64,000 bases of DNA from Candidatus Enterousia sp. (GTDB taxonomy: Bacteria; Pseudomonadota; Alphaproteobacteria; Rs-D84): positions 7,363 through 71,362 of the forward strand of contig JAZTWM010000004.1 in the NCBI GenBank assembly GCA_045635825.1, read 5' to 3'. Every line of letters begins with the position of its first letter. Position 1 is the stretch's first letter. Shown in pieces: positions 2,629 to 61,330 of this stretch. The notes under the pieces are model-generated. The model was not told the origin of the DNA. It did no database searches and saw nothing but the letters and a program-made list of their open reading frames with translations. Position numbers and translations under genes: made by a program.

Positions 2629-5589
2629 ATGAGAAAGATTGCAATTTTATCTATGTTGCTGGCTGTTTTTGTGGCGGATTCGCATGCTGCGATACGTCCA
2701 ACAGGTGGGCGTGCATCACGTGGTCCATCGTCTGCTGGTTCAACTGCAACAACATCAACCAAGGCGGTTGGTGCACGTTCTGCACGTACATCGACAACTG
2801 CAAAAAAGCCTGCTGTTGCGGCACGTGCGGCATCTAATTCTAAGACCGCGCCCAAGGCAACAGTTGCGGCACGTGCGGGGGTGACACAAAAGGTTATTGG
2901 TACAGGCACCAAGGTTGCAGCGGCGGCAAAGAATGTTGTGGTCAGTGAAGAATGTCAGGCCAAGTATGATGGATGTATGGATTCTTTTTGTATGCTGGAT
3001 AACGAGACCGGGGGCAGATGCTTATGCAGTGATAAAAATGCAGAGTTAGATGCAATCTTGGCTGAAATTGAAAAGTTAGATCAGCAATCTTATCAAATGG
3101 CGACATTTGGGGTCGAAAAAATTGAAATGGGTGCAGATGCAGATGCCGCGATTGCCAGTGCAAATGCAGCGGCACAATCTGTTATCAAGGAAACGGAATC
3201 AAAAAAAACAGCACGTAAAGCATTGGATTTATCGCTGTGGGATGAACCGGTTGATTTAGATGATACGGATGATGTTTTTGGTGGAATGGCATCATCACCG
3301 GTTGATGGCAAAGAAGGGGATGCGTTGCATCGTGCGGCAGCCCAGTTGTGTGTTGCCCAGATTCCAGAATGTGCGGGTGATTTAGATATGCTGCAGATGA
3401 TGTATGCACAGCGTATCAAGTCTGATTGTACGGCATATGAGAACAGTTTGAAGCAGCAAAAAAAATCCAGTACACAAAAATTGGCGACTGCAGAAAAAGC
3501 ATTAAGAGAGGCGGCGTTAGAGCAACTGCGTACAGCAAACAAATATGATTTAGGCCAATGTACGGTTGAGTTTAAAAAGTGTATGCAGACAACCGGTGGT
3601 TGTGGTGATGATTTTGCACAATGTGCATCGGTTGTTGCGTCTGATAATACGAATTTGAACAAATCTACATCCAGAAAACAGAAAAATTATGCGATCAAGG
3701 GGGCTGTGACCACGATTGAAATCTCTGCATCTACGTATGATGCATTGATGGCTAAAAAGCCCTTGTGTGAATCTGTTACAAAGTCTTGTGTTAATGTCGC
3801 AGGACAGGTGTGGGATACTTTCCTGCGTGAAGTCGCACCGCAAGTTAAAAATGCTGAATTGATTGCAGAAGATAAAGCAAGACAAGACTGTATCGGTAAT
3901 ATCTCTTCCTGTTTCCAAAAGGCCTGTAAGGATACAATGGATCCTAATGACCCAGATGGTTCATATGATATGTGTTTGTCCAGACCAGAAACCATGCTGA
4001 ATCTTTGTAAGATTCCTTTGAATGCATGTGGTATTGATGCTTCTTCTGCAGACAAGGCACAAGATTCTATGATCTGGGACTTCGTGGTCGCTAGACTTGC
4101 TTCTATGAGAGTTGATTCCTGCACAACAGAGGTTAAACAATGTTTGCAAAGCGATGATAGATGTGGTGAAGATTATGCTAATTGTATCGGATTGGATACG
4201 GATACAATAATTCGTATGTGCCCATATGATAAATTGACTGGCTGTCAAAAGGTTTATGGCGAAACTGATATTCGTGGTGATGCGGTTTATGAAGAGTTGG
4301 CCATGATGGTTCAGGGAATTATGCTGAATATTGATAATAACTTTATGGTTCAATGTCAAAATGCAGCGAATGAAGCCATGTTAAAGGTGTGTGGTGATAC
4401 AGAAAACTGTAATGCATTGACCACCGATAGCGGAATTGGTGCACGTGCATTGGATTATAAGATTTGTGAATATTCTGGTTCAGAAGATAGTCTGGATATT
4501 GATTATAACAAGTGTAGAACAGATATTTCACAAGTTTTGGACAGCGAATTGGGGCGTGTTGAAGGTGCAACCAGTGCCGGTTTGGGTGCGGTCACACCAT
4601 TCGCAGGCGTTATAGATGGTGTTATTTATTGGGAATCTGTGGACTTTGATGATGATGGAAAACTGATTTCTGTTGATGAATATTTGGCCAAGTTGGATGA
4701 CGCCAACATTTCTGCCCAGCAAAAAGAAAAAGTAAAATCTGAATTGGCGGTTTTGCAACGTAATATTGATGTTGCAATAAGTGCAATTGAATCTGATCCA
4801 ACGGTTCAATATTGTATGACAGGACGCGAAGTTCAGGGTATGAAAAAAATTGACAAAGACGGCGTTGCTACACGTACGCGTATTGGCGAAAAAAGTGCAG
4901 ATGCGGCACGCTTCCCAGAATTGACCAAGCAAATGCGTATGGTTATTGCGTCCGCGGCATTAAAAAAGGCCAAGGATAACTATTACAAAAAGTATGACGA
5001 GTTAAATGATAAAATGTTGCAGGATTATGCGACCTTGGGCGAGCGAATTTCAAAGATTCAAGGCGAAAATTCATTGGATGTAAAACGTGAATTGGCACGT
5101 AAATCATGTGTTGCATTTGTAGACATGGCATCTTTGCCAAAGTCACCAAATCCACCAAAAAGTGCATTTGGTAAAATTGCGGCCATGGTTGCAATTGTTG
5201 GTGCTGCGGTTGCAATTCCATTTACGCTTGGTACATCAACAGTTGTAATTGGTGCATTGACAGTGACAACTACTACAGGTGTAGGTGCATCCGCTGCAAT
5301 TGGTGCAGGCGCGGCAGTAGTTGCAGGTATTGGTATGTTGGGTAACGCTGGTTCTGGGAAAGCAAATGGCGAAGATAGCAAGGGGGTATTGGATTTGGTT
5401 GGTTCCAAGCAGCTTAATCAATGGAATTACAAGGAAACGATCACCACAACATTTGATTGGGATAAATTGATCTGTAAAAAATGTACACGTACACAAAAAT
5501 GTTCCAAGACCAAGAATCCGTTGTTTGGTAATAAATATTGTAAAACATGGGCGGATGCGGTTGAAACATGTAATGACACCCAGTTCTAA
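2629..5589 (+). CDS. secreted cysteine-rich repeat protein (family member A)
   Basis: 986 aa, RBS GGAAGGGA. Signal peptide MRKIAILSMLLAVFVADSHA, then an S/T/A/R-rich linker and CQAKYDGCMDSFC-x9-CLC. Modules QCTVEFKKCMQTTGGCGDDFAQC and SCTTEVKQCLQSDDRCGEDYANC. Gly/Ala-rich hydrophobic segment at aa 847-910 and tail VETCNDTQF. Collinear paralogue of 24966 and 27187. Confidence 0.85.
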   Translation: MRKIAILSMLLAVFVADSHAAIRPTGGRASRGPSSAGSTATTSTKAVGARSARTSTTAKKPAVAARAASNSKTAPKATVAARAGVTQKVIGTGTKVAAAAKNVVVSEECQAKYDGCMDSFCMLDNETGGRCLCSDKNAELDAILAEIEKLDQQSYQMATFGVEKIEMGADADAAIASANAAAQSVIKETESKKTARKALDLSLWDEPVDLDDTDDVFGGMASSPVDGKEGDALHRAAAQLCVAQIPECAGDLDMLQMMYAQRIKSDCTAYENSLKQQKKSSTQKLATAEKALREAALEQLRTANKYDLGQCTVEFKKCMQTTGGCGDDFAQCASVVASDNTNLNKSTSRKQKNYAIKGAVTTIEISASTYDALMAKKPLCESVTKSCVNVAGQVWDTFLREVAPQVKNAELIAEDKARQDCIGNISSCFQKACKDTMDPNDPDGSYDMCLSRPETMLNLCKIPLNACGIDASSADKAQDSMIWDFVVARLASMRVDSCTTEVKQCLQSDDRCGEDYANCIGLDTDTIIRMCPYDKLTGCQKVYGETDIRGDAVYEELAMMVQGIMLNIDNNFMVQCQNAANEAMLKVCGDTENCNALTTDSGIGARALDYKICEYSGSEDSLDIDYNKCRTDISQVLDSELGRVEGATSAGLGAVTPFAGVIDGVIYWESVDFDDDGKLISVDEYLAKLDDANISAQQKEKVKSELAVLQRNIDVAISAIESDPTVQYCMTGREVQGMKKIDKDGVATRTRIGEKSADAARFPELTKQMRMVIASAALKKAKDNYYKKYDELNDKMLQDYATLGERISKIQGENSLDVKRELARKSCVAFVDMASLPKSPNPPKSAFGKIAAMVAIVGAAVAIPFTLGTSTVVIGALTVTTTTGVGASAAIGAGAAVVAGIGMLGNAGSGKANGEDSKGVLDLVGSKQLNQWNYKETITTTFDWDKLICKKCTRTQKCSKTKNPLFGNKYCKTWADAVETCNDTQF

Positions 5590-21044: not shown

Positions 21045-21761
21045 TTAATTTGTTTTGTTTTTGAATGCAATGCTTTTTTTGTCTGCAGATGTTTTATACA
21101 TATCTTGGAATTTATTTTTGGCATCTGCCATTGTTTGTGGTGCGTTGCCCTGGGGGGCGTAGATGTCGGCACCGTTTAGTACAATCAGTCGTGATGGTGT
21201 GATTGTGTTGCCTTCGCAGTCAATATAATATTTGTTCTGGTCAAAATGTTTGCCATAACATTGGCCGTTTTCCACTGCAACATAACCATATTCTGCCAAC
21301 TTTGTGCATGTTGGTTGGGTGCCAAATGTTATTTCGCCATTTGGTGTTGTTTCGTCAACCCTGTCCAGAATGCCATGGCACCATACTTGGACATATTTGC
21401 CGTTTACCATTGTTTCTGTGCCGTTGTTTTTGGTTTTTCTTTGTCCATAGCAGTCGCCATATGCAGATAGTTTATTTGTGTCAAAGTCGGCATTGACATA
21501 AGAGGTGTTAGATATTTCTTTTTTTGGTAATGGGGTGTTGCCAGAACTGTTCTTTAATGCTTCGGCACATATAATTTTTTGTCCCCAACATTTTGAACCG
21601 TTGTCCCATAATTCGGTGTCAAATCCGGCCCCCATTGCAGAGTAGCAACGACTGGGGTCCAGGCGGCATACAGTTGGTTGTTCCCACCATGGTGTAAATG
21701 CGTTGGCGGAATTGTATATTCCCAGGATTGCTGTAATGAAAAAGATATATTTTTTATTCAT
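21045..21761 (-). CDS. secreted protein with about 10 Cys
   Basis: ATG at 21761 (RBS AGGAA) gives the signal peptide MNKKYIFFITAILGIYNSANA. The ORF-track start 21842 adds an unlikely polar extension. Lies immediately downstream of member D on the same strand. Confidence 0.7.
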   Translation of the reverse strand: MNKKYIFFITAILGIYNSANAFTPWWEQPTVCRLDPSRCYSAMGAGFDTELWDNGSKCWGQKIICAEALKNSSGNTPLPKKEISNTSYVNADFDTNKLSAYGDCYGQRKTKNNGTETMVNGKYVQVWCHGILDRVDETTPNGEITFGTQPTCTKLAEYGYVAVENGQCYGKHFDQNKYYIDCEGNTITPSRLIVLNGADIYAPQGNAPQTMADAKNKFQDMYKTSADKKSIAFKNKTN

Positions 21762-21847
21762 TTTTATTTCCTGTTTTCTGTTCATTTTATCATTTTTTGT
21801 TGTTTTTCGCAAGGTTTGGTGGTTTGTGTCATTCTTGCTCAATTAGT

Positions 21848-24469
21848 TTATTTGTGGTCCGCACAATATCCCCATTGTGTGTTTGCGGCTGTTTCTTTGT
21901 TGAATGTTGGATGTATTGGATCGCCTGTGATGTCGTGGCAACCATCGGTCTTTTCTGTTATGCCGTCGCCCTCCGTTGAACATGTGCCGTATGCACAACA
22001 TGTTTTGTTTTGTACTTTATCTACCCAGACAGAGTCGACCCAAATACCCCCCAGGCGTTCACATTCTTGTGACAGGGCGTTTGCCATATCTATGTGCAGT
22101 TGGTTCATAACAATGTTTACGTCTTGCAGGATGTTTGTTGGTAATACATCGCTGGATTGGGATGGGCGGACGCATGTTTGCATGGCATAACGAACAAGTT
22201 TTTGATAAAGACTGCCGACATAGTCGTCGCATTCGTTATCTTCTGTGGTTGGGGAATCGCTAATTACTATTTCTTTAGGTTTGTCGGTTCCGCCTGCACA
22301 GGTGTAGCCCGAAGGGCATGGTTCGCATGTGTTGTCGACTTGAGGGGTGCTATCGGCCTTGCCGTTATATTGCATATAGTATCCAGCAGCACAACTGGTG
22401 TATGCACAAATTGGGGCGGCGGTTCCACCAGGGTATGTGCATATTGCACCTTCGCGGGCTTTTATGCATGTGTTTCCAACGGTTGGGGTGCCGTTGTGTT
22501 CTGTGCCAGATGGGCCTGCCATATAGGAACCTGCAGGGCATGATGTGTATATTTTGCCACAAGTGTATGTAGGGTCCGTTACCGGTGTTGGGCGTGTTCC
22601 TTGATAATCGTCTTGTGTTGTAGTGTTGGATTCGCCAGGGGAACCGTTACCGCCGATTGTTTGGTCTGTGCTGGTGGATGTGGTATCCTGGTTGCATTTG
22701 GCAATTGTGGCGTATTGCTGACTGCCGGGGGCATAGACACGACATGTATATGGGTAGGCGTGCAGAGTGTCGTTGCTGGGGACGGCACACATGTTTTTTG
22801 CAAAGTCTATCAGGGTTTCACGACATTGTAGGCCGATTTGCAGGTCTGTTTTGTCGTGCATTGCGGTCAGTAGTGCCTGCATCCCATCAGGGCCGCCACC
22901 ATACAGGTTTGAACATGTGTCTAATTTTTCTTGGCACATTTGTTCGGCCAGTTCCAGGCGTGCACCAATTAATAGTTGTTCGTTTGTATTGCTGAAATCT
23001 TTTAGGGATTGGGTTTGTTCGTCATAGCATTTGTTAACCACGTCAAGACATTCGTTTTTTACCTGGCGGATGCGTTCGTGTTGACCTTGGTAGATTTCTG
23101 TGATTGCCTGGCGTAGAAATTCGTCCCATACATCATCGGCCAAATCGCGACATGTGTCTAGACTGTTCTTGGCAAAAGGGCGCATGGAGTTCAGTTTTGC
23201 AATTAACATTCTGTTGGTTTGGTTTGTTAGGATGTCGCCAGATAGTGAGATTTGAGATTCCAGTTGATAAAAATTAGGGCTGTATATTGGTTCGCCGGTT
23301 TCGTATGTTAGGTACAATCCAGTGATGTCTAGACAGTGGACATAGTCTGTGCCGCATGCAGTGTTGGCTGTGATATCTGTGCGAACCAATGACATGCAGT
23401 CATTGATTGAAGATGAATTGTGGGTGTTATAGTTTTCAAGGCGGGCCAGATTCATTTCACGTTCTGTTGAACGAATGGCGCTGTTTGCTTCAACTAGTTT
23501 TTTGTCCAGACCGTTTAGTACAATTGAGCAGTCGTTTTCTATATACATGCCGTATGCAGAGACCACCATATTTTGTGTGGTTTTGTCTGGACATTTATCG
23601 ATTGTTATTTCGGCACATTGTGCGTGTACGGCATTATACAGTGCTTCGCCAGATAGGTTTGCAATATTTACGCCGCCCGTTAAATCTGTGGTTGCCCAAA
23701 TAGAGTTTATGTTGCCTGCAATATCAAGTGTGCCTTGGGTTGATAATGATTTGGTTTTGGATTTGGATAATACATCAGTGATGCCTGCAAGTTGTAGTGC
23801 GGCATCGGACGAGTCTTTGTTGGCAGATTGGTATAGTTCACCACTGGATGCGGATATCATTGCGTTAACTTCGTCTGCGGATTTATCAATTACAGACAGG
23901 TTCAGTATATGGAAATCTTGTAATGAATTTGATGACTGGCTTAGGGCGCGTTCACGTTCTTGGACGGCAGATAGTTTGGACGAGCATACGCAGCGACGGT
24001 ATGTGTCGTTGGCGGTTCCGCAAAATTGATCCATGCATGTAAAATATGCGTCACGACAAGTGTTGTATCCGGTGCCGAATGTGTTCGATTGTGTGGTGTT
24101 AAGTGTTATTGTTGCACGTGCGGTGTTTTTTGTGTTCTGGGGATTAGAACTGAGACGTATGGCTGTCTTGTTTTGTTGTGTGCGTAGGCGACTGTTGCTT
24201 GGTGTTGTGCGTGTTGTAACAGATGCGGGGGTTGCAGTGCGTGCAGATACTGTGTTTTGACGATTGGTATTTACGGGTTTTGTGGTACGTTGTAATTTGC
24301 GCTGGACCGTAGCACGTGCAGCGGTGCCTTCGTTTCGTGTGTTTGTGATGGTTCGTTGTGTGTTAGTGTTCGTGTCGCCACGATGTATAGTGTTTGCATC
24401 ACGAACAGCAGCGTCAGCATTGCAGACGCCCAGGATAATAGCCAGGGAAAGTTTTATAATCCTTCTCAT
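21848..24469 (-). CDS. secreted cysteine-rich protein (family member D) with C-terminal C-x-x-G-Y-type repeats
   Basis: Start chosen at MRRIIKLSLAIILGVCNADA (24469). T/N/R-rich linker, then TCRDAYFTCMDQFC-x9-CVC. C-x6-C pairs (ECLDVVNKC, MCQEKLDTC). C-terminal SCPAGSYM, SCAAGYYM and EPCPSGYTCAGG repeats. Confidence 0.8.
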   Translation of the reverse strand: MRRIIKLSLAIILGVCNADAAVRDANTIHRGDTNTNTQRTITNTRNEGTAARATVQRKLQRTTKPVNTNRQNTVSARTATPASVTTRTTPSNSRLRTQQNKTAIRLSSNPQNTKNTARATITLNTTQSNTFGTGYNTCRDAYFTCMDQFCGTANDTYRRCVCSSKLSAVQERERALSQSSNSLQDFHILNLSVIDKSADEVNAMISASSGELYQSANKDSSDAALQLAGITDVLSKSKTKSLSTQGTLDIAGNINSIWATTDLTGGVNIANLSGEALYNAVHAQCAEITIDKCPDKTTQNMVVSAYGMYIENDCSIVLNGLDKKLVEANSAIRSTEREMNLARLENYNTHNSSSINDCMSLVRTDITANTACGTDYVHCLDITGLYLTYETGEPIYSPNFYQLESQISLSGDILTNQTNRMLIAKLNSMRPFAKNSLDTCRDLADDVWDEFLRQAITEIYQGQHERIRQVKNECLDVVNKCYDEQTQSLKDFSNTNEQLLIGARLELAEQMCQEKLDTCSNLYGGGPDGMQALLTAMHDKTDLQIGLQCRETLIDFAKNMCAVPSNDTLHAYPYTCRVYAPGSQQYATIAKCNQDTTSTSTDQTIGGNGSPGESNTTTQDDYQGTRPTPVTDPTYTCGKIYTSCPAGSYMAGPSGTEHNGTPTVGNTCIKAREGAICTYPGGTAAPICAYTSCAAGYYMQYNGKADSTPQVDNTCEPCPSGYTCAGGTDKPKEIVISDSPTTEDNECDDYVGSLYQKLVRYAMQTCVRPSQSSDVLPTNILQDVNIVMNQLHIDMANALSQECERLGGIWVDSVWVDKVQNKTCCAYGTCSTEGDGITEKTDGCHDITGDPIHPTFNKETAANTQWGYCADHK

Positions 24470-24539
24470 TCGTGTATATATATAATATACTTTACCAAAA
24501 AATGGTTTTTTTAACAAGAAAAATACATAAAGATGCTAT

Positions 24540-24563
24540 TAAAAAATGCCCGTTTCGGGCATT
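24540..24563 (-). terminator. rho-independent terminator after infA
   Basis: ATGCCC-GAAAC-GGGCAT followed by T6 when read on the minus strand. Confidence 0.8.
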
Positions 24564-24569
24564 GAAAAA

Positions 24570-24815
24570 TTAGTTGGTGTTTTCAGTGGTTGGACGGTTG
24601 CGTTCAACAAACGTGATGCGACCCTTGTCCAAATCGTATGGTGTCATTTCAACGCGTACACGTTCGCCAACATTAACCCAGATGCGTGCTTTGCGCATTT
24701 TTCCGCATACTGTTGCCAAGATTTCGTGTCCGTTTTCAAGTTTTACACGAAACATGGTGTTTGGCAGTTTGTCTTCGACAGTGCCACTAAAAACAATTAC
24801 ATCGTCTTTTGCCAT
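24570..24815 (-). CDS. infA: translation initiation factor IF-1
   Basis: [78 protein letters not shown] upstream of the ATG at 24815. Confidence 0.95.
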
Positions 24816-24965
24816 TTGTTTATCCCTTGGATTTTTCTGCAATTTCTGGGGTGTATGATATTGGTTTTGGGTGAAAAAAGCAAGAGTTTTTTATTTGCTT
24901 GTTAAAATTGTTAAGTTTTGATAAAATAAAGTAATAAAATCTATCTTGATGAGGGGTGTAGTCTA

Positions 24966-27152
24966 ATGAAAATAAGAATTCTTGCGACCTTGCTGGTGTT
25001 AATACCGGGTGTGTCTTTTGCTGCACAGCGTAGTGAACAATCGCGTGTTGGGGTTAATCGTGTGGCAATGGCGGGTGTTCGTGGACCGAATATGACCAAG
25101 ACGTTGTCTTCGACGACTAAGCCGACTGTGCCCTTGAATCCAGGTGACGGTACGGATAAAAACCCAGGGGATGCGGATGATGAAGATGATGTTGTAGATT
25201 CTGGTGATAAAGAAGATTCAACAGATAATGATGCGGATGTTAATCCAGATGCCGGTGATGAAGTGATTACGGACGGTGACTGTCGCGAGGCGTATCGTGC
25301 ATGTATGGATGAGTTTTGCTTGTTAGATGAATCAGAAGGGTATCGTTGTGCGTGTTCGGATAATATAAATCAAGCAAAGTCCTTGATTCAAGAAATTCAG
25401 CGTATTCAGGCAGAGGCGGATAAATTGTACACCGAAGAAGTTGAGCGTATTCAATTGGGGGCCAAGGCTAAGTTGGTATTTGGTGAAAGTGAGGCGGCAA
25501 AGAAGAGTTCGCGTGCATCGGGTTTGAGTTTTGCAGAATGGTTAAAGAGTGGTGATGACGATTCTGAATCTTTGGATGCAGACGAGTATATTGGTGATGG
25601 TTTATATGGAATGGCTGCTGATTTTTGTCAGGCGGAATTAAAGGCGTGTGGTGCCAAGGCAGATATGGAAGAAATGTTGTATCTGCGTCAGGTGACGGCA
25701 GATTGTAAGACGTATAATTATTATTTGGCGGATCAAAAAACAAATGCAGAGTCGAATAAGAGGACGGCAGAAGCGGCGGTTCGTCAGGCCCGTTTGGCGA
25801 TGCTGGATACAACGGATAAATATAATCGTGGTGAATGTTTGTTGGCGTATCGTTCTTGTATTGCAGACAAGGGTGGGTGTGGTAACAATTTTGAAAACTG
25901 TTTAGATGCAGATTTGCTGGGGCGTCGTGCACATGCGTGCGAAAATGTATTAGATCAATGTATGGCGTCACGCAGTTATGTTTTGCAGGACTGGGAGGCC
26001 GAGGCTGAGGCTATTTTAGTAGATGCTGCAAAATATGCGGATAAATATCGCAGACAGACATGTTTGGCACAGATTCAGGTTTGTTTAGAAGATGGTTGTT
26101 CGACTGCAACGAATTCGGCGTGTTTGTCCGATGTGAATGTTGCAGCAGGTGTTTGTCCGATTATTGATGAGTGTGATTCTATTATCCCAGGGTTAAAGAC
26201 AGTTGTTAATGATAAGTTGGGATATTTGCGTACACAGTTCTGTCAAAATGATGTTGATGCGTGTTTGAAGGATAAATGTGGTGCGAACTTTACGGCACCC
26301 GAATGTATCGGTAAAACGCCTGCACAAATTGTTGAATTGTGTCCACAGACAATGTTCCCATCATGTAAGAACGAAACGCAATATGATATTATTGTATCGG
26401 CGGCGGTATTGCAGATGGATTATCAGTTGATGCAGGGGTGTGTGAATTATTTTGGTGAACAGTTGGGTAAGACATGTGGAACAGACATGTCATGTTTGCC
26501 AAGCGATGATACTGTTGTTGGGTTGACTGATGTTCCGGGGTCTGAACAAGAAATGATTGAATTGCGTGCACGTGTGCGTGATAATGCCAAGGTTGCGGTT
26601 GATGGCTTCTTTGAAAAGTTTGAACAGGATAAGACGGTTGCAGCCTGTGCTGATGCTGAAAAACCAACAGGTAAAAATAGTTTAGGGGTCACTGTATTTA
26701 ATACGGCAAAGTTGATTGCGTATATTGGTGCAGAAAATCGTGCAATGCGTGAATTGGAAACCAAGATTTCCGAATTGTCGCGTAAACAGGATTTGGCCAA
26801 GGCAGAAGAAACATGTTATTCTATGTTCAAGCCAGAGACGCCAAAAACAGGTGATAAGAACTATAGTTATATTCGCAGTGTAGTTTTTGAACCAGCGTTG
26901 CGTAATTGTCATGTGTGCCGTATGCAACAGGTTTGTGAAACGGGTGGTGAATCCAAGGCAACGTCTGCATTAAAAGCGGCCGGCGGTGGATTGGCCAGTG
27001 GTGCTGCAATGGGTACAATGGTTAATGCAGGTTGGGGTACGGCCATTGGTGGTATCGTTGGTGCGGTTGGTGCCGGTATCGGTGGTGCATTGTCTGGTGG
27101 ACAAGAAGAGTTCTGTCAGCAGATTGAATCTTGTGAAGATGTTAATATGTAA
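24966..27152 (+). CDS. secreted cysteine-rich repeat protein (family member B)
   Basis: 728 aa. Signal peptide MKIRILATLLVLIPGVSFA and an acidic linker, then DCREAYRACMDEFC-x9-CAC. Modules ECLLAYRSCIADKGGCGNNFENC and FCQNDVDACLKDKCGANFTAPEC. Gly-rich hydrophobic segment at aa 668-712 and tail IESCEDVNM. Confidence 0.85.
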   Translation: MKIRILATLLVLIPGVSFAAQRSEQSRVGVNRVAMAGVRGPNMTKTLSSTTKPTVPLNPGDGTDKNPGDADDEDDVVDSGDKEDSTDNDADVNPDAGDEVITDGDCREAYRACMDEFCLLDESEGYRCACSDNINQAKSLIQEIQRIQAEADKLYTEEVERIQLGAKAKLVFGESEAAKKSSRASGLSFAEWLKSGDDDSESLDADEYIGDGLYGMAADFCQAELKACGAKADMEEMLYLRQVTADCKTYNYYLADQKTNAESNKRTAEAAVRQARLAMLDTTDKYNRGECLLAYRSCIADKGGCGNNFENCLDADLLGRRAHACENVLDQCMASRSYVLQDWEAEAEAILVDAAKYADKYRRQTCLAQIQVCLEDGCSTATNSACLSDVNVAAGVCPIIDECDSIIPGLKTVVNDKLGYLRTQFCQNDVDACLKDKCGANFTAPECIGKTPAQIVELCPQTMFPSCKNETQYDIIVSAAVLQMDYQLMQGCVNYFGEQLGKTCGTDMSCLPSDDTVVGLTDVPGSEQEMIELRARVRDNAKVAVDGFFEKFEQDKTVAACADAEKPTGKNSLGVTVFNTAKLIAYIGAENRAMRELETKISELSRKQDLAKAEETCYSMFKPETPKTGDKNYSYIRSVVFEPALRNCHVCRMQQVCETGGESKATSALKAAGGGLASGAAMGTMVNAGWGTAIGGIVGAVGAGIGGALSGGQEEFCQQIESCEDVNM

Positions 27153-27186
27153 GTTGTAATTGTTACGAGGTTTATGGAGAGAGAAA

Positions 27187-29682
27187 ATGAGACATTTTGG
27201 TTTTTTGTGTTCTGTTTTTGCGTTGTTGGCTGCGTTGCCTGTTGCTGACGTGTCAGCAGCGGCTGCAAAAAAGGCGACAAAACAGTCTGCGATTCAGTCT
27301 GGAACCAAGGTTCGTACCAAGACAGATGCGTCTGGTTTGTATGATCAGGAATGTTATGATGCGTATTATGGCTGTATGGATCAATTCTGTATATCTGAAA
27401 ATGAAAATGGTGGCAGCTGTGCGTGCAGTGATTTAAGTTTGCAATATGATAAGCAATTTTTGGAAATTCAGGAAATCTTGGCCGAGGCAGATCGTATTTC
27501 AACGGAAGAGGTGGAAAAGGTAAAAGCCGGTGCAAATGCGGATATTGTTTTCACAGGAAAACGTGAATATGATGATGATGGAAATCTGGTTGATGTAGAT
27601 GATATTGGGAAAAATGATAAGTCTAAAAAACGTGCAGATTTGTTGTCGTTGTGGGATGAAAATGTTGAGGAAGACGAAGAAGAATTTGGCAATACAATTG
27701 GTAATATTGCAGATTTGACGGGTGCGGCTTTGTACAAAGCGGCAGAAGAACTGTGTTTGGATCAGGTTCCAGATAGTTGTGAATCAGATTTGCCTTTGTT
27801 GCAAAGTATGTATTCCAGACAGATTACATCGGATTGCAAAGGTTTTGAAAATAGTTTGAAGGCCAAACGTATAGAGGCGGATAATGCATTGGCGGCTGCA
27901 AATGCAGATGTGCGTAATGCATTAAAAGAAAGTTTTGACAGTGCAAATAAGTATGATTTGGGTCAATGCATGGTTGCCTTTAAAAAGTGTATGCAGACCG
28001 ATGATGCCTGTGGTAAAAATTGGGAAAATTGTGTTGCGACAATAGCCTCGGAAAATATGCAGAATAACAAAGCACAGAGTACGGCTGGCACAAAGGTTAA
28101 GACGGTTGATGTTTATGATATCACTGCATCAACAATGGAGGTTTTGGATTCCAAGCGTATGATATGTGAAAACGTATTGGGGCAGTGTATGGCGGTGCGT
28201 GATAAGGTTTGGCCCGCATTCCTGCGTGAGGCGGCACCAACAATCAAGGTTGCAGAAGCGTCTGCAGAATCAAAGTTCCGTCAATCGTGCTTAAGCAGTA
28301 TTTCCACATGTATTCACAAGGCCTGTAAAGATGATATTGCAGGCAAGGGGGTAGAGACAATGGATGCGTGTTTGTCACGACCAGATATGGCACGCAGTTT
28401 TTGTAAGGTTGAAATTGACCCTTGTGAAAGAATGGAACCGCTGATTTGGGGATATGTTGTTGATAAATTGGCGGCGATGCGTGTTGATGCATGTACACAA
28501 GAGGTCAAAGATTGCTTTACAGCAGACACACGTTGTGGCAAGGATTTTGAAAATTGTATTGGTATGGACTATGACTATATCCATGATATTTGTCCAGTTG
28601 ATAGTTTGGTTGTCTGCAAGGCGAATAATCCTGCTTTTTCAATGGATGATTTAGATTCTATGCTGATGGGATTGTATTTGAACATTGATAATGCAGCACT
28701 GGATCAATGTCAGGATTTGATTGACCGTAAAATGGCCGAGGTTTGTGGCAGTACAACAGACTGTAACAGGTTCGCGGCCGATGATACCATTGGTGCGGGC
28801 AGTATTCGTTCCCAAAAAGATGGGACTAAATATCGTGTGACGGGAATGATTTCATTTGGATCAATTAAAATGGGATCGGCCAATGGTTTAACACGTGACG
28901 AAGGGGATGATGAGACAACACGTTTGAAGCCAGGTGAGATTGGTGTGCAGGAATATTTGACACGTGTTCGTGAATTGAATGCAGGTGTGCCAAATGCGGA
29001 TGGCATTATTGCATCGATTGAAGAAGAATTGAATAATATTGCGGGTACCATTAATCGTACAATTGAAATGATTGAACAGGATCCAGAAATTCAGTTCTGT
29101 GTAAGCGGGCGTGATTTGTCACAGATTACAGGAAAGAAGGGCGATAAAACAAGTGCCCGCTTCCCAAATCTGCTGAATCAGGTTAAGTTACAGATTGCGG
29201 TCTCGGCATTGCGTCAGGCACAGGATAACTATAATGCCAAGTTTAATCAGGCAGTATCTGAGGCGACCAAGGATGCGGATGCGGACCTGGCACAGTATAT
29301 GTGTCATAAGATGGCTGAAAACAGTGCGACAACTTTGAAAAGTCCAACGGTTGATTTGGCACCGCCATATGCAATTAGTTACGAGGTTGGAACTGGACTG
29401 ATCGCAGAAGATTTAACAGCCGGTGGTCATGGTAAGACGGATTTAGGTAAGGTTAGTTATAAAAATAGTGGTTATTTGGGGAAAAGCAGTGGGGATTTGA
29501 ATGCTGGTACCAAAGAAACAACAGCGATATTTAATCGTGATACCAGGGTTTGTCACATCTGTACAACAACTGTTACCCAGTCTTGTAAAACAACAGGGTC
29601 TAAGTCGTGGTTCCATAATAACAGAAACACGTCTTGTACAACAAATGCACCGATTGAAAAGTGTGAAGATGTACAAATGTAA
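27187..29682 (+). CDS. secreted cysteine-rich repeat protein (family member C)
   Basis: ATG at 27187 (RBS GGAGAGAG) gives MRHFGFLCSVFALLAALPVADVSA, followed by ECYDAYYGCMDQFC-x9-CAC. Modules QCMVAFKKCMQTDDACGKNWENC and ACTQEVKDCFTADTRCGKDFENC. Tail IEKCEDVQM. Collinear with member A but lacks the Gly-rich hydrophobic segment. Confidence 0.85.
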   Translation: MRHFGFLCSVFALLAALPVADVSAAAAKKATKQSAIQSGTKVRTKTDASGLYDQECYDAYYGCMDQFCISENENGGSCACSDLSLQYDKQFLEIQEILAEADRISTEEVEKVKAGANADIVFTGKREYDDDGNLVDVDDIGKNDKSKKRADLLSLWDENVEEDEEEFGNTIGNIADLTGAALYKAAEELCLDQVPDSCESDLPLLQSMYSRQITSDCKGFENSLKAKRIEADNALAAANADVRNALKESFDSANKYDLGQCMVAFKKCMQTDDACGKNWENCVATIASENMQNNKAQSTAGTKVKTVDVYDITASTMEVLDSKRMICENVLGQCMAVRDKVWPAFLREAAPTIKVAEASAESKFRQSCLSSISTCIHKACKDDIAGKGVETMDACLSRPDMARSFCKVEIDPCERMEPLIWGYVVDKLAAMRVDACTQEVKDCFTADTRCGKDFENCIGMDYDYIHDICPVDSLVVCKANNPAFSMDDLDSMLMGLYLNIDNAALDQCQDLIDRKMAEVCGSTTDCNRFAADDTIGAGSIRSQKDGTKYRVTGMISFGSIKMGSANGLTRDEGDDETTRLKPGEIGVQEYLTRVRELNAGVPNADGIIASIEEELNNIAGTINRTIEMIEQDPEIQFCVSGRDLSQITGKKGDKTSARFPNLLNQVKLQIAVSALRQAQDNYNAKFNQAVSEATKDADADLAQYMCHKMAENSATTLKSPTVDLAPPYAISYEVGTGLIAEDLTAGGHGKTDLGKVSYKNSGYLGKSSGDLNAGTKETTAIFNRDTRVCHICTTTVTQSCKTTGSKSWFHNNRNTSCTTNAPIEKCEDVQM

Positions 29683-36282: not shown

Positions 36283-39200
36283 ATGTCCCATACAAAACAT
36301 TTGGCGGATTTGTTGAAAGTCTGCAGTATTTTGCCAGCCTTGGTAATTATGCCTGCAATGGCGGAAAGTCTTTCGGAACGTCAGGTTATAACACAAGATA
36401 AAACATATAAGAATTTGACGATTGATGGCATCTCTTCTTCTGTTGCAAATAACGGTGGTGTTTTTTATTTAGAGGATGTTCAGGATGTGCTTTTGACTTT
36501 TAAAGGCGAAAGTAAGTTTGTTAACAACTCTATTCTTAATGGTGGGATGGGAGCTGTTATTGGTAATGGTTGGTTGTCTACGAAGGATGCTGATAAATGG
36601 AATCCATATACACCAGGCGGTCATATACTTTTTGATGGTGATACATTATTTATGAATAATACAACTAATAATGCAAATGGGGCTGGGGCGATATTTAATT
36701 ATGGTATTGGAACAGTGGATAATCCAGATATTTTATTTAATGGAGAGGCGGAGTTCATTGGAAACTCGTCTACTGGGGTGAGTAATTCTTTTTGTGTCGG
36801 TGGTGGGGCGATATACCATCGTGATGGGATGATTGTATTTAATGATGATGCGAATTTTGTTGCTAATTCCTCGGCATCAAAGGGTGGGGCGATTATGGCC
36901 GCTGGTGATATTGTATTTAGGGGCGAAGCAGATTTTGAGGAAAATAAGGCCTCGTCCCAGGGTGGTGCATTAGCCATTTTGGGTGGTAATGTTGTTTTTG
37001 AAAAGGAGGCAAGTTTTAAAAATAATTCTGCGAATGCTGGGGCAGCGATATCTATGGATGCATCAAATGCGTCTGTAACATTTAAGGATTTTGTGTTGTT
37101 TGATAGAAATACAGGGACTGCTACATTGTGGAATAATTCTTCTACTGGGACAGTTGTGTTTGAAAATGGTGCCAAGTTCTATCAAAATACAAATACTCAA
37201 AATGGAACTTTGCAGAATGCGGGTGATGTGACTTTAAATTCTGGTGATTTTGTATTTATGCATAATACAGGTGGAAATGGTGGCGGTCTAAAAAATGTTG
37301 GGACGGTTACTGTAAATACCGATGGTGATGTGTTGTTTGATACAAATATTACCAAGTCTACTGGTGCTGCGGTTGATAATGGTGGGACTTTAACATTAAC
37401 GGCAGCAAATGTATCGTTCTTGGGAAATACATCTGATGCAGGGTATGCAGGTGCGATATTTAATTCAGGTGATATGAGCATCTTGGGCGCAACAAATGTG
37501 TTCAGCAATAATATTGCTAAGGATACAGGAACAACCAAGCACGGTGGTGGCGCAATTCATAATCGCGGAGCTAAGGGGACTACAACATTGGTTCTTGGAA
37601 CGAAAGACAGTGTGAATGTCTTTAGTGCTAATCAGTCGAATGCACATGGTGGGGCAATTGTTGCACGTGCGTTTGATGGAGATACACAAAATTCAGAAGT
37701 AGTTATAAATGGTGATACAACATTTGTTGGTAATACTGCGGCATTAAATGGTGGTGCAATTTGGAATAATGTGGCAAAAAGTGGATCTACAACAGGGACA
37801 GCAAGTTTTGCCATAAATGGTGAGGTTGAATTTAAAAATAATATTGCAAATGGTGTTGGCGGTGCAATCTTTAATGGATCGCAAATGACAATTGCCAAGG
37901 CAGAATTTGATGAAAATATTGCGTACGGTAATTATGCGGGTGCGATTTATAATTCTGCATCTGGTGATATTGCAAATGTAGTTGCGGATTTTGATGAAAA
38001 CAAGGTCTTGAATGATAACTTTGCTGCGGGTGGTGCAATTGCTAACATAGGAAAAATTGGTAGCCTGACAGGTTTATTTGAAGAAAATGTTGTAAATGCA
38101 ATGGCAGGCGATGTTTATGCGACTGCTAAGGGAGGTGCGATTTATACATATGCAGGTTCTTCTATTGAATCAATTGTTGCGGATTTTGATGGCAATTCAG
38201 CTGTAAGTGCTGGAGATGCAATAGGGGGGGCAGTAGTAAATGATGGGGTTGTTGGTGTGTTGAGTGCCGAGAAATATGGTTTTGTAAACAATGCTGTAAC
38301 TGCCAAAGCGAATGCATGGGCAGGTGCATTGTATAACAGCCAAGATGCGATCATTAATGAGTTGTCCGCAAGCTTTACTGGAAATTCAGCAAATGGAACG
38401 GATTGGGCGATTGGTGGTGCAGTGGTTAACTTTGGTACATTGAATGTGACATCTGGGGTGTACGCTAATAATTCAGTTAGTGCTTCTGCTAAAGAAGGTT
38501 ATGCTATGGGTGGTGCAATCTATAATGCCAATGTGCTGAATTTTGTTGGTGACGTTGAATTTAGAAACAATGTGGTAAGTGGTGCAAGAGATTATGCATA
38601 TGGTGGTGCGATTTATAATGACGGCACACTGAATTTTGATGCCAATGCGTTGTTTGCGAATAATACGGTGGCAGGTGGTGCAAATGATATTTATAACGCA
38701 GGAATTATAAATGTTAATAAAGATGCTGTTTTGACATTGGATGGCGGTATTATTGGCGAAGGTTCTGGTGTGATAAACATTGCCCATGGTGCCACAATGA
38801 ATATCGGTACTGCAGTAGTCGAGCAGGCAGAAATAAATATTGATGGTACTGTTGTTGCATCTGTTTTAAGCAATCGTTCTTATGGTCGTTTGTTTGGTGA
38901 CATTAATGCAGGTCAGCTTGCTGAGTTGCAGTTAAATGTTGGTGCAGCTGGTTCTTATACAATATTTAGAGATGACGTGGATATTAAAGTGTCGGCTGGT
39001 AAGGCATATGATGCAGCGGTTTTAGAGGATGGTACAGTTGTTATTACAACAAAATCTGTTGCAGATATTGCGGATGATGCTGGTATTTCAACACAGGCGG
39101 CGGGTGCAGTTGCAAGTTTGGCAAATACAACCAGCAACAAAGCACATCGTGTATCATTGGCGTTGCAAGAAGCATTGAATGCAGGTGATGCAGCATATGT

Positions 39201-40125
39201 AGAGGCAGAGACAGCCAAATTGAACCCAACAGATAAGCCTGTTGCCCAGGCGGCGACAACATCTGTGCAGAATCAGGTTTTGTCATTGGCGTCAGGCCGT
39301 ATGAGCGGTGGCATGTCCGTTGGTCGTTCGGGTGGTGACGAGTATGCCCAAGAAAATGGTTTCTGGATTCAGGGGCTGTTTAATAAGTCAAAGTTTGCAG
39401 ATCAATTCCATGGATATACACGTGGGGTTGCATTGGGTGCGGATACTTTGATTGATCGTAAATGGACAATTGGTGGTGGTTTGGCATTTAATGGCAGCGA
39501 TGTTCATGCCAGAAATGGTGCACATACCAGTATTGATACCAAAACATTGTTCTTGTATGGTCAGTATAAGCCAAACAATTGGTTCGTAAATGCGACTGCA
39601 ACATATTCTATGTCTGAATATACAGAAAATAAAACTGTTGCAGGTGTTGGACTGGGGGCATCCTATGATGTTGATGCATATGGTGCACAGTTTATGACCG
39701 GTTACGATTTTGCGACAGGTATCACAACACAGGCGGGTATGCGTTATCTGTATATTGCCCAGGATTCGTACATTGATGATCGTGATGCACAAATCATGGC
39801 GACAGATACGGATTTCTTGACAGGTGTTGCAGGGCTGAAATATGCGTTCGCAATTGAAAATGATTGGGCAATCCAGATTCGACCAGAATTGTCAGCGTCT
39901 GTGACATATGACTTTGTCAGTGATGATTCTGCAACAACGGTTGTGACCCCAGGGGTAGAAGCGTATGCGGTAAACGGTAATCGTTTGTCACGTATTGGTG
40001 GGGAATTTGGTATTGGCTTCACCGCACAGTATAAAGGTGTTGAAATGTCCCTGATGTACGATTTGGATTTGCACAAAGATTATACATCCCAGACAGGTAT
40101 GTTGAAATTGCGTGCCCAATTCTAA
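36283..40125 (+). CDS. autotransporter with Pmp-type (GGA[ILV] / FxxN) passenger repeats
   Basis: 1280 aa, RBS AAGGAG. Signal region ...ALVIMPAMAES. Dozens of GGAI[YFW]N and F[VIEK]xN repeats. C-terminal beta-domain (GFWIQGLFNKS...LKLRAQF). Confidence 0.9.
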   Translation: MSHTKHLADLLKVCSILPALVIMPAMAESLSERQVITQDKTYKNLTIDGISSSVANNGGVFYLEDVQDVLLTFKGESKFVNNSILNGGMGAVIGNGWLSTKDADKWNPYTPGGHILFDGDTLFMNNTTNNANGAGAIFNYGIGTVDNPDILFNGEAEFIGNSSTGVSNSFCVGGGAIYHRDGMIVFNDDANFVANSSASKGGAIMAAGDIVFRGEADFEENKASSQGGALAILGGNVVFEKEASFKNNSANAGAAISMDASNASVTFKDFVLFDRNTGTATLWNNSSTGTVVFENGAKFYQNTNTQNGTLQNAGDVTLNSGDFVFMHNTGGNGGGLKNVGTVTVNTDGDVLFDTNITKSTGAAVDNGGTLTLTAANVSFLGNTSDAGYAGAIFNSGDMSILGATNVFSNNIAKDTGTTKHGGGAIHNRGAKGTTTLVLGTKDSVNVFSANQSNAHGGAIVARAFDGDTQNSEVVINGDTTFVGNTAALNGGAIWNNVAKSGSTTGTASFAINGEVEFKNNIANGVGGAIFNGSQMTIAKAEFDENIAYGNYAGAIYNSASGDIANVVADFDENKVLNDNFAAGGAIANIGKIGSLTGLFEENVVNAMAGDVYATAKGGAIYTYAGSSIESIVADFDGNSAVSAGDAIGGAVVNDGVVGVLSAEKYGFVNNAVTAKANAWAGALYNSQDAIINELSASFTGNSANGTDWAIGGAVVNFGTLNVTSGVYANNSVSASAKEGYAMGGAIYNANVLNFVGDVEFRNNVVSGARDYAYGGAIYNDGTLNFDANALFANNTVAGGANDIYNAGIINVNKDAVLTLDGGIIGEGSGVINIAHGATMNIGTAVVEQAEINIDGTVVASVLSNRSYGRLFGDINAGQLAELQLNVGAAGSYTIFRDDVDIKVSAGKAYDAAVLEDGTVVITTKSVADIADDAGISTQAAGAVASLANTTSNKAHRVSLALQEALNAGDAAYVEAETAKLNPTDKPVAQAATTSVQNQVLSLASGRMSGGMSVGRSGGDEYAQENGFWIQGLFNKSKFADQFHGYTRGVALGADTLIDRKWTIGGGLAFNGSDVHARNGAHTSIDTKTLFLYGQYKPNNWFVNATATYSMSEYTENKTVAGVGLGASYDVDAYGAQFMTGYDFATGITTQAGMRYLYIAQDSYIDDRDAQIMATDTDFLTGVAGLKYAFAIENDWAIQIRPELSASVTYDFVSDDSATTVVTPGVEAYAVNGNRLSRIGGEFGIGFTAQYKGVEMSLMYDLDLHKDYTSQTGMLKLRAQF

Positions 40126-40289: not shown

Positions 40290-40406
40290 AATGTGGGTGA
40301 ATGCTTTGATTTGTAATGGGGATTTGACCGATGATCGTGGGCATAGATGTTTTATGAATAAAGCCAACCCTGGGGGTGTTTTATTGTATTATTATTAAAA
40401 AAAATG

Positions 40407-40415
40407 TGGTATAAT
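40407..40415 (+). promoter_or_regulatory. extended -10 element TGGTATAAT
   Basis: TGnTATAAT match that overlaps the ORF-track ATG at 40404. This argues the real start of the downstream gene is further 3'. Confidence 0.5.
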
Positions 40416-40445
40416 TTTTGGGAAATTGATAAGTGGAGAGAACCC

Positions 40446-41678
40446 TTGCAGCAGTTTGCAGATTTAGTTTTTATCAGGTTGTTAAAATTAATGGCTGTGG
40501 TGGCTATGGTTCTGGGTGGTGCCGCCTTTGCAGATGATGGATCTGCTATATTTTTGCCGCGAATTGGGGATGTTTCGCCGGAATCTGTGCCTGCATCTAT
40601 GTCGCCTTCAACCACAGCACCATCTGCTTCGGAGTGTAGTTTATATCAAAAAGAGTCTGTTGCTTGTCCTGCGAACTATAGTCATGCGGCAACATGTGAG
40701 AGGCGATGTGGTGGTGACTTGCGATGGAAAGTAGTAGTGGTAACATGTGAGCATAATTATAGGCTGGGTCGTGACGAGTTGACGTGTACGCAGATTATAT
40801 CATATACACATTTGGTTGGGCGTGCTTGCCAAAATCCTGTTCCGTTGCCGGCACATGCAACGGTTGGGCGTATTGTTGAAAATAGTCTTAGCCCATATGG
40901 TATTGCGTGTGGGGTGACTGCATGCGAGGATGGCTGGCATGTTGATACCAGGAATCATGGACAATGTCTGAAAGGGGCGGGAACACAAACGACTGCGTCG
41001 TGTGATGCGGGGTTGTTTATGGTGGCGTCTGGCAATCAATGTGAGTGTATGCAAAATTACGAGTGGCGTGACCCGAATAATCACGCATTGGGCTGCGTAG
41101 AGTCGACTGTGGCAAGATTAAAGCAAGAGTGTGCAGCTGCAGGTGGGACAACATGGAACGAAGAAACAAGTGTTTGTACATGCAATGATACAAATTATGA
41201 ATATAATACCGATACCAAGATTTGTACAGAAACTGAACTATATGCACAGTGTCAATCATTGGTGTCGGCAGGTCAGGCAGAGTGGGATGACGCGTCAAAG
41301 GTTTGTACATGCACACAGACAAATTATCTGTTTAGTAATGGTCAGTGTATTGAAGATCCGGCAATTGTTGCTGCAAGGAATGCGGAAAATGCAAGGGTTG
41401 CAAAGCAAAAGATAGAGAATGTGCATGCAAAGTTAAAAAGAAAACAGGATACTTTAAAGGTCAGTGCATGGAAAGATGCAGATGGTCAATTTAATACTGC
41501 ACGTTTGGCGTCTGATTCTATTGCAGGGGCTGCGGTTGGTGCGGTTGGGGGACTGTTGATAAACAAACATGTAAAAAAGAATCAGGTTGAAGATGGGTTC
41601 GAGGCCCTGGGGTGTACGGTCAAGGGTGAAACTGTGGCACAGTGGGGTGAAGAGTTTAGTATAGATATTAAAAAATAG
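40446..41678 (+). CDS. secreted/anchored cysteine-rich protein with C-x-C EGF-like modules (member I)
   Basis: Start proposed at TTG 40446, with GGAG 7 nt upstream, giving (M)QQFADLVFIRLLKLMAVVAMVLGGAAFA; an ATG at 40491 is the alternative. Modules CECMQNYEWRDPNNHALGC, VCTCNDTNYEYNTDTKIC and VCTCTQTNYLFSNGQC. C-terminal IAGAAVGAVGGLLI hydrophobic segment. Confidence 0.7.
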   Translation: MQQFADLVFIRLLKLMAVVAMVLGGAAFADDGSAIFLPRIGDVSPESVPASMSPSTTAPSASECSLYQKESVACPANYSHAATCERRCGGDLRWKVVVVTCEHNYRLGRDELTCTQIISYTHLVGRACQNPVPLPAHATVGRIVENSLSPYGIACGVTACEDGWHVDTRNHGQCLKGAGTQTTASCDAGLFMVASGNQCECMQNYEWRDPNNHALGCVESTVARLKQECAAAGGTTWNEETSVCTCNDTNYEYNTDTKICTETELYAQCQSLVSAGQAEWDDASKVCTCTQTNYLFSNGQCIEDPAIVAARNAENARVAKQKIENVHAKLKRKQDTLKVSAWKDADGQFNTARLASDSIAGAAVGAVGGLLINKHVKKNQVEDGFEALGCTVKGETVAQWGEEFSIDIKK

Positions 41679-41750: not shown

Positions 41751-42401
41751 ATGAAATTAGAGTCAAATGGTATTTTAATTGGATTGCGTCCATTTAATGA
41801 ACGTGATGCAATTGCACAAATCTTTAGCCAGGATTTTGGTGTCGTGGTGGGGATGTTGCGTGGTGCAAATATTGCAAAAAAGAATAAGCCTTTGTTGGGG
41901 CAGTATGGTCATATGGTGTGGAATGCGCGCCTGGATTCGCAATTGGGGACAATGCATTGGGATATAGAAAAGAATTTGTCGGTTGCATTGTTAATGTCGC
42001 CTGACAAATTGTCCTGTATGAATGCGGGATTTGAATTGTTGGTCACATTGTTGCCAGAACGTCAGGCGTATCAAGAATTGTATGAAGAAACGATTCGTTT
42101 AATGTTTGGGTTGGCGTCAGATATGCCGAATGCATATTTAAATTGGGAAGTCGCTTTGTTGCGTGAATTGGGCTATGCACTGGATTTGTCCAGGTGTTCA
42201 GGATGTGGGACATTAAATGATTTGAATTATTTGTCGCCACGTACCGCACGTGCGGTTTGTGATTCGTGTGCCAGACCATATTTGAATAAACTGTATCGAT
42301 TGCCTGTGGATTTAGGGGTGACGGGACGCTTTCTGGAAAGTGTCTGTAATCAACAGGGTGTTAATATTCCAGTAATGCGAAAAATGTTAAAATTGGATTG
42401 A
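41751..42401 (+). CDS. recO: DNA repair protein RecO
   Basis: ATG at 41751 gives MKLESNGILIGLRPFNERDAIAQIFSQDFGVVVGMLRG (OB-fold N-terminus). C-terminal Cys cluster CSGCG...CDSC. Confidence 0.8.
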   Translation: MKLESNGILIGLRPFNERDAIAQIFSQDFGVVVGMLRGANIAKKNKPLLGQYGHMVWNARLDSQLGTMHWDIEKNLSVALLMSPDKLSCMNAGFELLVTLLPERQAYQELYEETIRLMFGLASDMPNAYLNWEVALLRELGYALDLSRCSGCGTLNDLNYLSPRTARAVCDSCARPYLNKLYRLPVDLGVTGRFLESVCNQQGVNIPVMRKMLKLD

Positions 42402-42478
42402 TTTTATCCAGAATTATTTCTTGCGATTTTGATAATTTTTGCTATGGTGATTTTGTTCAACAGAAGAAGGAGAAAATC

Positions 42479-60292: not shown

Positions 60293-60372
60293 ATTTATCT
60301 TGATTTTATCATAAATCGTGACTTGAATCAAAATGCTTTATTTGTTAAAATAATAAAAAAGAGAGATTGGAT

Positions 60373-60933: not shown

Positions 60934-60954
60934 CAAAAACAAAAAGGGTGAAAA

Positions 60955-61287: not shown

Positions 61288-61293
61288 ATGTTT

Positions 61294-61322: not shown

Positions 61323-61330
61323 GAGTTTGT

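Follow-up and report, generated by a model that had tools for sequence, protein, structure and literature searches.

In the 64-kb stretch of Candidatus Enterousia DNA analyzed here (64,000 nucleotides (nt) in all, hereafter the window), we identified an 873-amino-acid (aa) secreted cysteine-rich protein, encoded on the minus strand at positions 21848-24469 (hereafter the target), which belongs to an undescribed protein family and carries towards its C-terminus a cysteine module of a known repeat type, in a new version particular to this lineage. We tentatively read the target as a modular envelope or surface protein with this module as its lineage-specific cysteine-repeat head, and put the probability of this reading at roughly 45%. 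The module itself is a common, home-grown building block of the lineage's own secreted proteins. The parts of the target are as follows, with the percentage identities of its regions, here and below, given relative to more distant orthologues.

21848-24469, minus strand: whole gene, 873-aa secreted cysteine-rich protein (from the open reading frame (ORF) and its homologues)
24410-24469, minus strand: Sec-type signal peptide, aa 1-20, likely cut after A-D-A (from sequence)
24077-24409, minus strand: disordered T/N/R-rich basic linker, aa 21-131 (composition; predicted local distance difference test score (pLDDT) <50)
23975-24076, minus strand: family-defining N-terminal cysteine motif, aa 132-165 (89% identity, the most conserved part)
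22685-23974, minus strand: all-helical core, aa 166-595, with 15 invariant cysteines (AF2 model, pLDDT 70-80)
22571-22684, minus strand: hypervariable low-complexity linker, aa 596-633 (16% identity, 43% gaps, pLDDT <50)
22403-22570, minus strand: module copy A and the preceding Y-x-C, aa 634-689 (module hidden Markov model (HMM), 34.1 bits; gap fraction 0.85-0.9)
22280-22402, minus strand: module copy B, aa 690-730 (module HMM, 69 bits; pLDDT 75-92)
21851-22234, minus strand: C-terminal alpha/beta domain, aa 746-873, with invariant C747, C766, C803 and C869 (59% identity, pLDDT 70-93)

Copy B has the pattern YTSC-x2-GYYM ... GN-x-C-x2-CP-x-G-x2-C-x-GG, with YTSCAAGYYMQYNG at aa 690-703 and NTCEPCPSGYTCAGG at aa 713-727; it is predicted to form beta-hairpins and is 50% identical to its counterparts, and at least 95% of 120 orthologues keep its cysteines C693, C715, C718 and C724. 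Copy A, where YTSCPAGSYM is located at aa 641-650, is degenerate, in that C-x2-C has turned into C-x8-C, and represents a clade-specific insertion or duplication present in ~10% of the sampled orthologues, i.e., only in close relatives of the window. The two copies align with a Smith-Waterman score of 75, against 28 +/- 5.5 for shuffled sequences, and 0 of 2000 shuffles reach 75; in the DNA, a 31-nt repeat (D1) recurs at a spacing of 147 nt, i.e., 49 codons. Copy A was not used in building the module HMM, which scored copies A and B, and nothing else, in a six-frame translation of the window, so that within the window the target alone carries the module.

These results bear out the preliminary description of this DNA in that the distinct C-x2-G-Y-Y / C-x2-C-P-x-G repeat near the C-terminus is real and its motif is conserved in orthologues; all the strings it quoted are also present where it placed them, both in the target and in a small ORF at 55568. 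It had further extended the repeats over the C-terminal ~250 aa. Repeats do occur there, but they are confined to approximately aa 634-730, with aa 746-873 forming a separate, non-repeat domain (AlphaFold model of aa 628-873, mean pLDDT 72.5).

More than 1100 homologues of the target were found, the top 120 of which are full length at 50-95% identity. A regular-expression count over the query and these 120 homologues gave one copy of the module in 105 of the 121 sequences and two or three in a few; overall, copy number in orthologues ranges from 1 to ~6, with six matched stretches in orthologue P0059. The consensus of 73 units, YTSCxxGYYMTxNGxYNxTPxxGNxCxPCPxGxTCxGGTxxP, contains four invariant cysteines, and the target fits the pattern C-x2-G-Y-Y-M-x(8-16)-G-N-x-C-x2-C-P-x-G-x2-C-x-G-G-T, which we define here, from alignment A3, as the mark of membership. 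Relatives of the target were present in 244 matching stretches from species-representative genomes, of which 80 loci were kept, in a collection holding one genome per species. The module is retained at the target locus in all 80 of these loci, whose titles read Candidatus Enterousia, Alphaproteobacteria metagenome-assembled genome (MAG) or "uncultured Rickettsiales" and whose samples came from the gut of ruminants, birds, humans and other hosts. In Candidatus Enterousia, the target belongs to the core genes and occupies a single locus.

The module is also present in many other proteins of the lineage. A search of 1.84 billion representative proteins with the module HMM returned 232 at an expectation value (E) of <=1e-3, and 90 of 146 newly found module proteins carry the module within their first 130 aa. 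This leader arrangement consists of a stereotyped signal peptide followed by the module (MSRFLR...NAFA/AGYxCxxxKKYTSCxxGYYM..., the slash marking the boundary), in proteins ranging in size from ~100 to 4388 aa. Listeria-Bacteroides repeats (Flg_new) are present in P0121, P0122 and P0134. Two of the leader-type proteins are encoded alongside target orthologues: P0122 shares assembly JBKSMY (Enterousia MAG KS320-82) with the target-orthologue locus L006, and P0124 shares assembly JAFVOS with the target-orthologue locus L046. The module profile serves as a means to pick out secreted and surface proteins of this lineage, together with a small conserved gene set that is a candidate for envelope or attachment functions, and the module adds a bacterial branch to a type of cysteine repeat that is usually considered in the context of eukaryotic receptors.

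Relation to known cysteine-repeat families

The preliminary description had likened the repeat to GCC2_GCC3, ephrin-receptor-like and TNFR-type cysteine repeats. At the level of the target itself, this was not supported by profile searches: neither the whole target nor its last 284 aa gave a Pfam match to GCC2_GCC3/Ephrin_rec_like, furin, TNFR or EGF at E <=1, and neither did the repeat region at E <=10. PF07699 was not matched at E <=10 even in the six-copy orthologue (curated cut-off 23.1 bits), and TNFR_c6 (PF00020, cut-off 29.4 bits) was not matched in the target, with the best orthologue, P0065, reaching 8.9 bits (E 2.7). The sole Pfam match of the target was to DUF7631 (PF24634), at 12.4-15.0 bits (E 0.036 at 15 bits), below the cut-off of 27. 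Nothing significant came from scanning the target or its C-terminal part, the paralogues and partner protein described below, or the small ORF with Pfam and NCBIfam. When the PDB was searched by sequence, using profiles of the entire protein, of its C-terminal part and of the module, only chance matches to a viral nsp3 and to FGF10 (E >=0.45) were returned, no solved TNFR or Eph structure was matched by sequence, and a search of a viral structure library was uninformative.

At a remote level, a resemblance is present. The repeat region of P0059 matches DUF7631 at 36.1 bits (E 9e-9; cut-off 27) in four stretches, with only profile positions ~3-20 of 50 matched; a word-seeded search with this six-copy region returned only 4 proteins. 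We also ran a Pfam scan of 25 module-HMM hits that do not have the leader-type arrangement. DUF7631 was passed by P0134 (57 bits), P0177 and P0202, and Ephrin_rec_like by P0192 (lungfish), P0231 (goby), P0252 and P0218, with P0198, whose cluster includes an Alphaproteobacteria MAG protein, being borderline; several of the 25 have sub-threshold TNFR-type matches. P0218, a protist-like type I membrane protein, contains two full-length, single-domain matches to the module (34.3 and 28.6 bits) with little bias. A Foldseek search with the AlphaFold model, i.e., the structure prediction that the preliminary description had proposed, gave as its 19 best PDB matches only TNFR-family cysteine-rich domains (CD40, GITR, OX40, RANK, DcR3 and TNFR2), which align with aa 688-732 at a probability of up to 0.95, over ~42-50 columns with 26-33% identity, at non-significant E values (0.13-1.5); the root-mean-square deviation of the shorter alignments was 3.6-3.8 A.

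The three families compare with the unit as follows. In the case of DUF7631, the module half C-x2-C-P-x-G-x2-C-x-G-G matches the profile positions given above, whereas a longer loop and a conserved signature, Y-T-S-C-x2-G-Y-Y-M and G-N-x-C, set the Enterousia unit apart; since DUF7631 is a domain of unknown function, the match says nothing on mechanism. Ephrin_rec_like (PF07699, formerly GCC2_GCC3) and the module both contain C-x2-G-x-[YF] ... C-x2-C-P-x-G-x-[YF]-C-x-G, but the target is without a Pfam match to this family, the summed scores carry a very large bias, and false positives reach comparable E values. For aa 688-732, the best superposition of the predicted fold is with TNFR cysteine-rich domains; a TNFR domain has six cysteines per ~40 aa, forming three disulfides, whereas the Enterousia unit has the four invariant cysteines C693, C715, C718 and C724. 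We regard the module as a lineage-specific, remote relative of DUF7631, ephrin-receptor-like (GCC2_GCC3) and TNFR-type repeats. An improbable further possibility is that the module and the ephrin-receptor-like repeats found in protists and animals are linked by descent, in one direction or the other.

The preliminary description had also tied the repeat to the small ORF at 55568, which contains YRCAAGYYGSANC...CSGCSRCEP, including a CAAGYY string. This tie was rejected: the ORF has no match to the module HMM at E <=10 with filters off, hhalign gave a probability of 3.8% over 11 columns, and local alignment gave a z of ~2.4.

Protein architecture and the conserved locus

The target ORF runs on the minus strand from an ATG at 24469 to a stop codon at 21848-21850. 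A TTG start at 24517, which would add 16 aa (889-aa product), was rejected in favor of this ATG because the consensus of 81 orthologues begins there. The signal peptide reads MRRIIKLSLAIILGVCNADA and is followed after the likely cut by AV (orthologue consensus GVGxADA/AVR, cut at the slash), and the AF2 model places a helix at residues 2-15. Reading "LGVC" as a lipoprotein signal was rejected, since only 8% of orthologues have C16, which leaves no conserved lipobox cysteine. The basic linker that follows (111 aa, containing VSARTATPASVTTRTTPSNSRLRT) includes 28 T, 15 N and 14 R residues and has a net charge of +15; its arginines R23, R30, R52, R87 and R118 are invariant while the other residues vary, with 37% identity overall. 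In the most conserved part, the motif C-x6-C-M-D-x-F-C-x9-C-x-C occupies aa 138-162, with TCRDAYFTCMDQFC-x9-CVC at aa 137-162.

Past the signal peptide, the target contains 37 cysteines, 29 of which are near-invariant in the alignment with 120 homologues. C-x6-C pairs are present at C138/145, C372/379, C474/481 and C512/519, and a C-x7-C pair at C285/293. The helical core, which is 70% identical to more distant orthologues, had no PDB match by sequence or fold, and the full-length fold search gave spectrin-like noise and nothing significant; the full-length AF2 model has a mean pLDDT of 58.9, with the tail (aa 1-131) disordered and the end domain confident. This C-terminal domain is found only in the orthologue group of the target and has no relative in the PDB by sequence profile or fold search. 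The end of the protein is a site of modular change.

Neighbouring genes and the paralogues of the target are as follows.

21045-21761, minus strand: downstream partner, 238-aa secreted protein with 9 invariant cysteines (downstream in 79 of 80 loci)
24570-24842, minus strand: infA, housekeeping gene upstream of the target
24966-27152 and 27160-29682, plus strand: two paralogues, divergently transcribed from the target (BLASTP; synteny in 78-80 of 80 loci)
2629-5589, plus strand: third family paralogue, 986 aa (BLASTP, E 1e-19)

BLASTP with the target matched the paralogue at 27160-29682 with E 1e-22 over aa 113-522, that at 2629-5589 with E 1e-19 and that at 24966-27152 with E 8e-8, which, together with the N-terminal cysteine motif, confirms the target as a member of a cysteine-rich family of the window. 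The core up to about aa 522 is homologous to all three paralogues, and because the last ~350 residues of the target have no counterpart in them, the preliminary description was right to call it a divergent member. The paralogues at 24966-27152 and 2629-5589 end in a glycine/alanine-rich hydrophobic stretch, and a C-terminal tail ...C-E-D-V-[NQ]-M is common to the paralogues at 24966 and 27160 and absent from the target. As to the C-terminal ends of orthologues, the end domain is duplicated in P0054, P0057, P0074, P0089 and P0091, and P0046, P0060, P0062, P0093 and P0068 have extra C-terminal extensions, consisting of a domain with "LNCTEGEE...CCPDG" or of C-x-C repeats.

Gene order at the locus is conserved in 78-80 of the 80 loci, with parB and parA in one direction and infA, the target and the ~238-aa secreted protein in the other. 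An island of cysteine-rich secreted proteins at 21045-29682 surrounds infA, in the same order in 78-80 of 80 species genomes. Conservation of the partner's cysteines is >=0.99 in 78 genomes, its homologues are clade-restricted hypothetical proteins only, and it has no Pfam, NCBIfam or named relative. A gap of 5 nt between target and partner, obtained from an extended ORF, was rejected, as the conserved MNKKY start gives 86 nt. Terminator-like hairpins follow infA (24563-24545) and the partner gene (21003-20988), and it is plausible that the target has a promoter of its own, from which the small gene 86 nt downstream may be transcribed as well. The cysteine count of the mature protein is odd in 92 of the 112 orthologues that are full length; an intermolecular disulfide would explain both this odd count and the nine cysteines of the partner. 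A DsbA-like protein with a CGYC motif is encoded at 42398-43303 (plus strand), as read from its sequence, so that a periplasmic disulfide-forming enzyme would be available to the cysteine-rich proteins.

About one eighth of the window is spent on one large secreted cysteine-rich family that is undescribed in databases and papers, and our literature search found no paper on proteins of the target family. Near-identical DNA is also present in metagenomes from the bovine gut. A mosquito metatranscriptome run (X26) contains a 201-nt contig that is 100% identical to positions 22860-23060 of the window, within the target gene, which is probably sample carry-over and not biology.

Possible role and alternatives

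Candidatus Enterousia, an uncultured alphaproteobacterium, and the order Rs-D84, to which it belongs, are widespread in animal and human guts and have genomes of less than 1 Mb; Enterousia genomes are ~0.75-1.0 Mb in size and are without most biosynthetic pathways and respiration, and an obligate symbiotic or parasitic lifestyle with dependence on a partner has been suggested (PMC12306168). In our preferred reading, the periplasmic Dsb system would oxidize the target after its export by the Sec signal peptide, with the helical core then forming a disulfide-stapled stalk, the basic tail tethering the protein to an anionic envelope layer, and the module or modules, together with the end domain, making up a distal head for binding the surface of a partner or for docking other proteins that bear the module. 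The module would most likely act as a rigid, disulfide-locked spacer or binding unit. Because the module varies in copy number, the linker is hypervariable and some orthologues have additional domains at the C-terminus, this part of the protein looks like an exposed region, and an adhesin or surface role of the target is plausible.

Several observations weigh against this reading. The target on its own lies below every Pfam threshold, and all its fold matches have E >=0.13, with none reaching 1e-3. The module HMM also drew one ankyrin and one sushi protein, with very large bias terms and E values of 1e-8 to 1e-6; in multi-repeat proteins, many weak partial matches add up to the score, and the bias amounts to hundreds of bits, and short cysteine patterns give convincing-looking yet unreliable profile matches. 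An hhalign probability of 97% against ephrin-like units selected by regular expression was not relied on, as it is circular because the expression imposed the cysteine pattern. A less circular comparison, with Ephrin_rec_like stretches delimited by Pfam, gave 84% over 23 columns, and a sushi control gave 66%. Because the control reached this level and the HMM returned false positives, it is not proven that the module is homologous to the eukaryotic families and has not merely converged with them on a shared arrangement of cysteines: DUF7631, Ephrin_rec_like, TNFR and the module all fall under one broad type of disulfide-hairpin repeat, with neither membership of a single family nor common descent with the eukaryotic families established. 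In addition, the single RNA-labelled bovine run that we found has flat, DNA-like coverage of ~4x over all genes, and it is from cysteine parity that the one intermolecular disulfide, possibly between target and partner, is inferred. The 70% identity of the core across species is more in line with a housekeeping component of the envelope than with an adhesin under fast evolution, and the target, which has neither a beta-barrel nor a lipobox nor any known outer-membrane anchor, may stay periplasmic; the conserved core and this lack of a recognizable anchor keep a periplasmic structural role open.

Such a role could take the form of a lattice, in which the four paralogues and the 9-cysteine partner make up a disulfide-cross-linked layer of the envelope and the module is only a structural knot. 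The many invariant cysteines and their odd count, the tightly conserved island among housekeeping genes, the identity of 70-89% across the core and N-terminal motif, the missing anchor or barrel, and the Pmp-like autotransporters in the same window are all in keeping with a lattice, which nevertheless strikes us as rather unlikely. The hypervariable linker and the 1 to ~6 module copies resemble an exposed, adaptable region; the module heads very large proteins with Listeria-Bacteroides repeats, a kind of repeat typical of surface proteins; and the retention of MreB, RodA and MrdA in Rs-D84 genomes means that peptidoglycan still gives rigidity (PMC12306168). A parallel is offered by chlamydiae. 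Their cysteine-rich outer-membrane complex (OmcA/OmcB) likewise consists of secreted cysteine-rich envelope proteins in a host-dependent bacterium with a reduced genome, where intermolecular disulfides may matter, but no sequence or fold similarity to the target was found and the analogy is a functional one only.

From the mostly eukaryotic occurrence of such repeats, the preliminary description had gone on to suggest host mimicry or an adhesin function. In such a scenario, the module would copy an animal TNFR or ephrin-receptor cysteine-rich domain and bind a ligand of the host, as a decoy or adhesin, perhaps after acquisition from a eukaryote. The organism does inhabit animal guts, TNFR cysteine-rich domains are the top fold matches, and the module profile reaches vertebrate Ephrin_rec_like proteins as well as the protist-like P0218. 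Against this, the target has no significant TNFR_c6 or Ephrin_rec_like match and matches no solved TNFR or Eph sequence, the false positives of the profile search illustrate how easily cysteine patterns match, and a unit has four cysteines in place of six. Ligand binding by TNFR also uses several tandem domains, whereas most orthologues have a single copy. Furthermore, the module is widespread in the secreted proteins of the bacterial lineage itself and is fixed in the 80 species loci, from ruminant, bird, human and other hosts, which argues for an old bacterial module and not for host-specific mimicry. We therefore find mimicry the least supported explanation, and a highly improbable one; a role of the module as a decoy for host cytokines is unlikely.

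The module could instead be a docking handle, i.e., a recognition element common to the target and to the N-termini of giant surface proteins, with the island as a scaffold or assembly machine. In such a new surface-display system, the scaffold, perhaps made up of the target, the 9-cysteine partner (perhaps disulfide-joined to it) and the three helical paralogues, would present or dock giant proteins capped by the module, dozens of them, through which the bacterium attaches to its partner cell. The module directly follows a stereotyped signal peptide in ~90 proteins, such proteins and the target are encoded together in some genomes, and the target, a core gene, has neighbours that are conserved as well; set against this, these are observations of co-occurrence, the module may be just a stable folding unit reused in many proteins, and we consider such a system improbable.

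Remaining genes of the window

Undescribed exported proteins rich in cysteine account for a large share of the window. Further secreted proteins, with a cysteine content of 2-8% and without a match in Pfam, are encoded at 6786-8879, 9950-12004 (minus strand), 12026-12892 (minus strand), 40404-41678, 49416-50219 and 55568-56275; the protein at 9950 has a poly-Q tract and C-terminal C-x-C repeats, and that at 40404 contains repeated C-x-C...Y...C units. Large autotransporter-like proteins, as judged from their sequences, are located at 36283-40125, 13838-17461 and 61943-63835, one with Pmp-like GGAI/FxxN repeats and two resembling subtilase-type passengers with C-terminal barrels. An ORF at 60586-61479 (minus strand; 297 aa, 18 cysteines) was rejected as a spurious antisense reading; the real genes opposite to it encode a lipoprotein (60367-60933) and an FKBP-type isomerase (60955-61287). 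The ssb gene is located at 61367-61825 (minus strand). All 2-kb bins have a positive GC skew (0.05-0.35), whichever way their genes are oriented, and this uniformity suggests that the window lies within one replichore.

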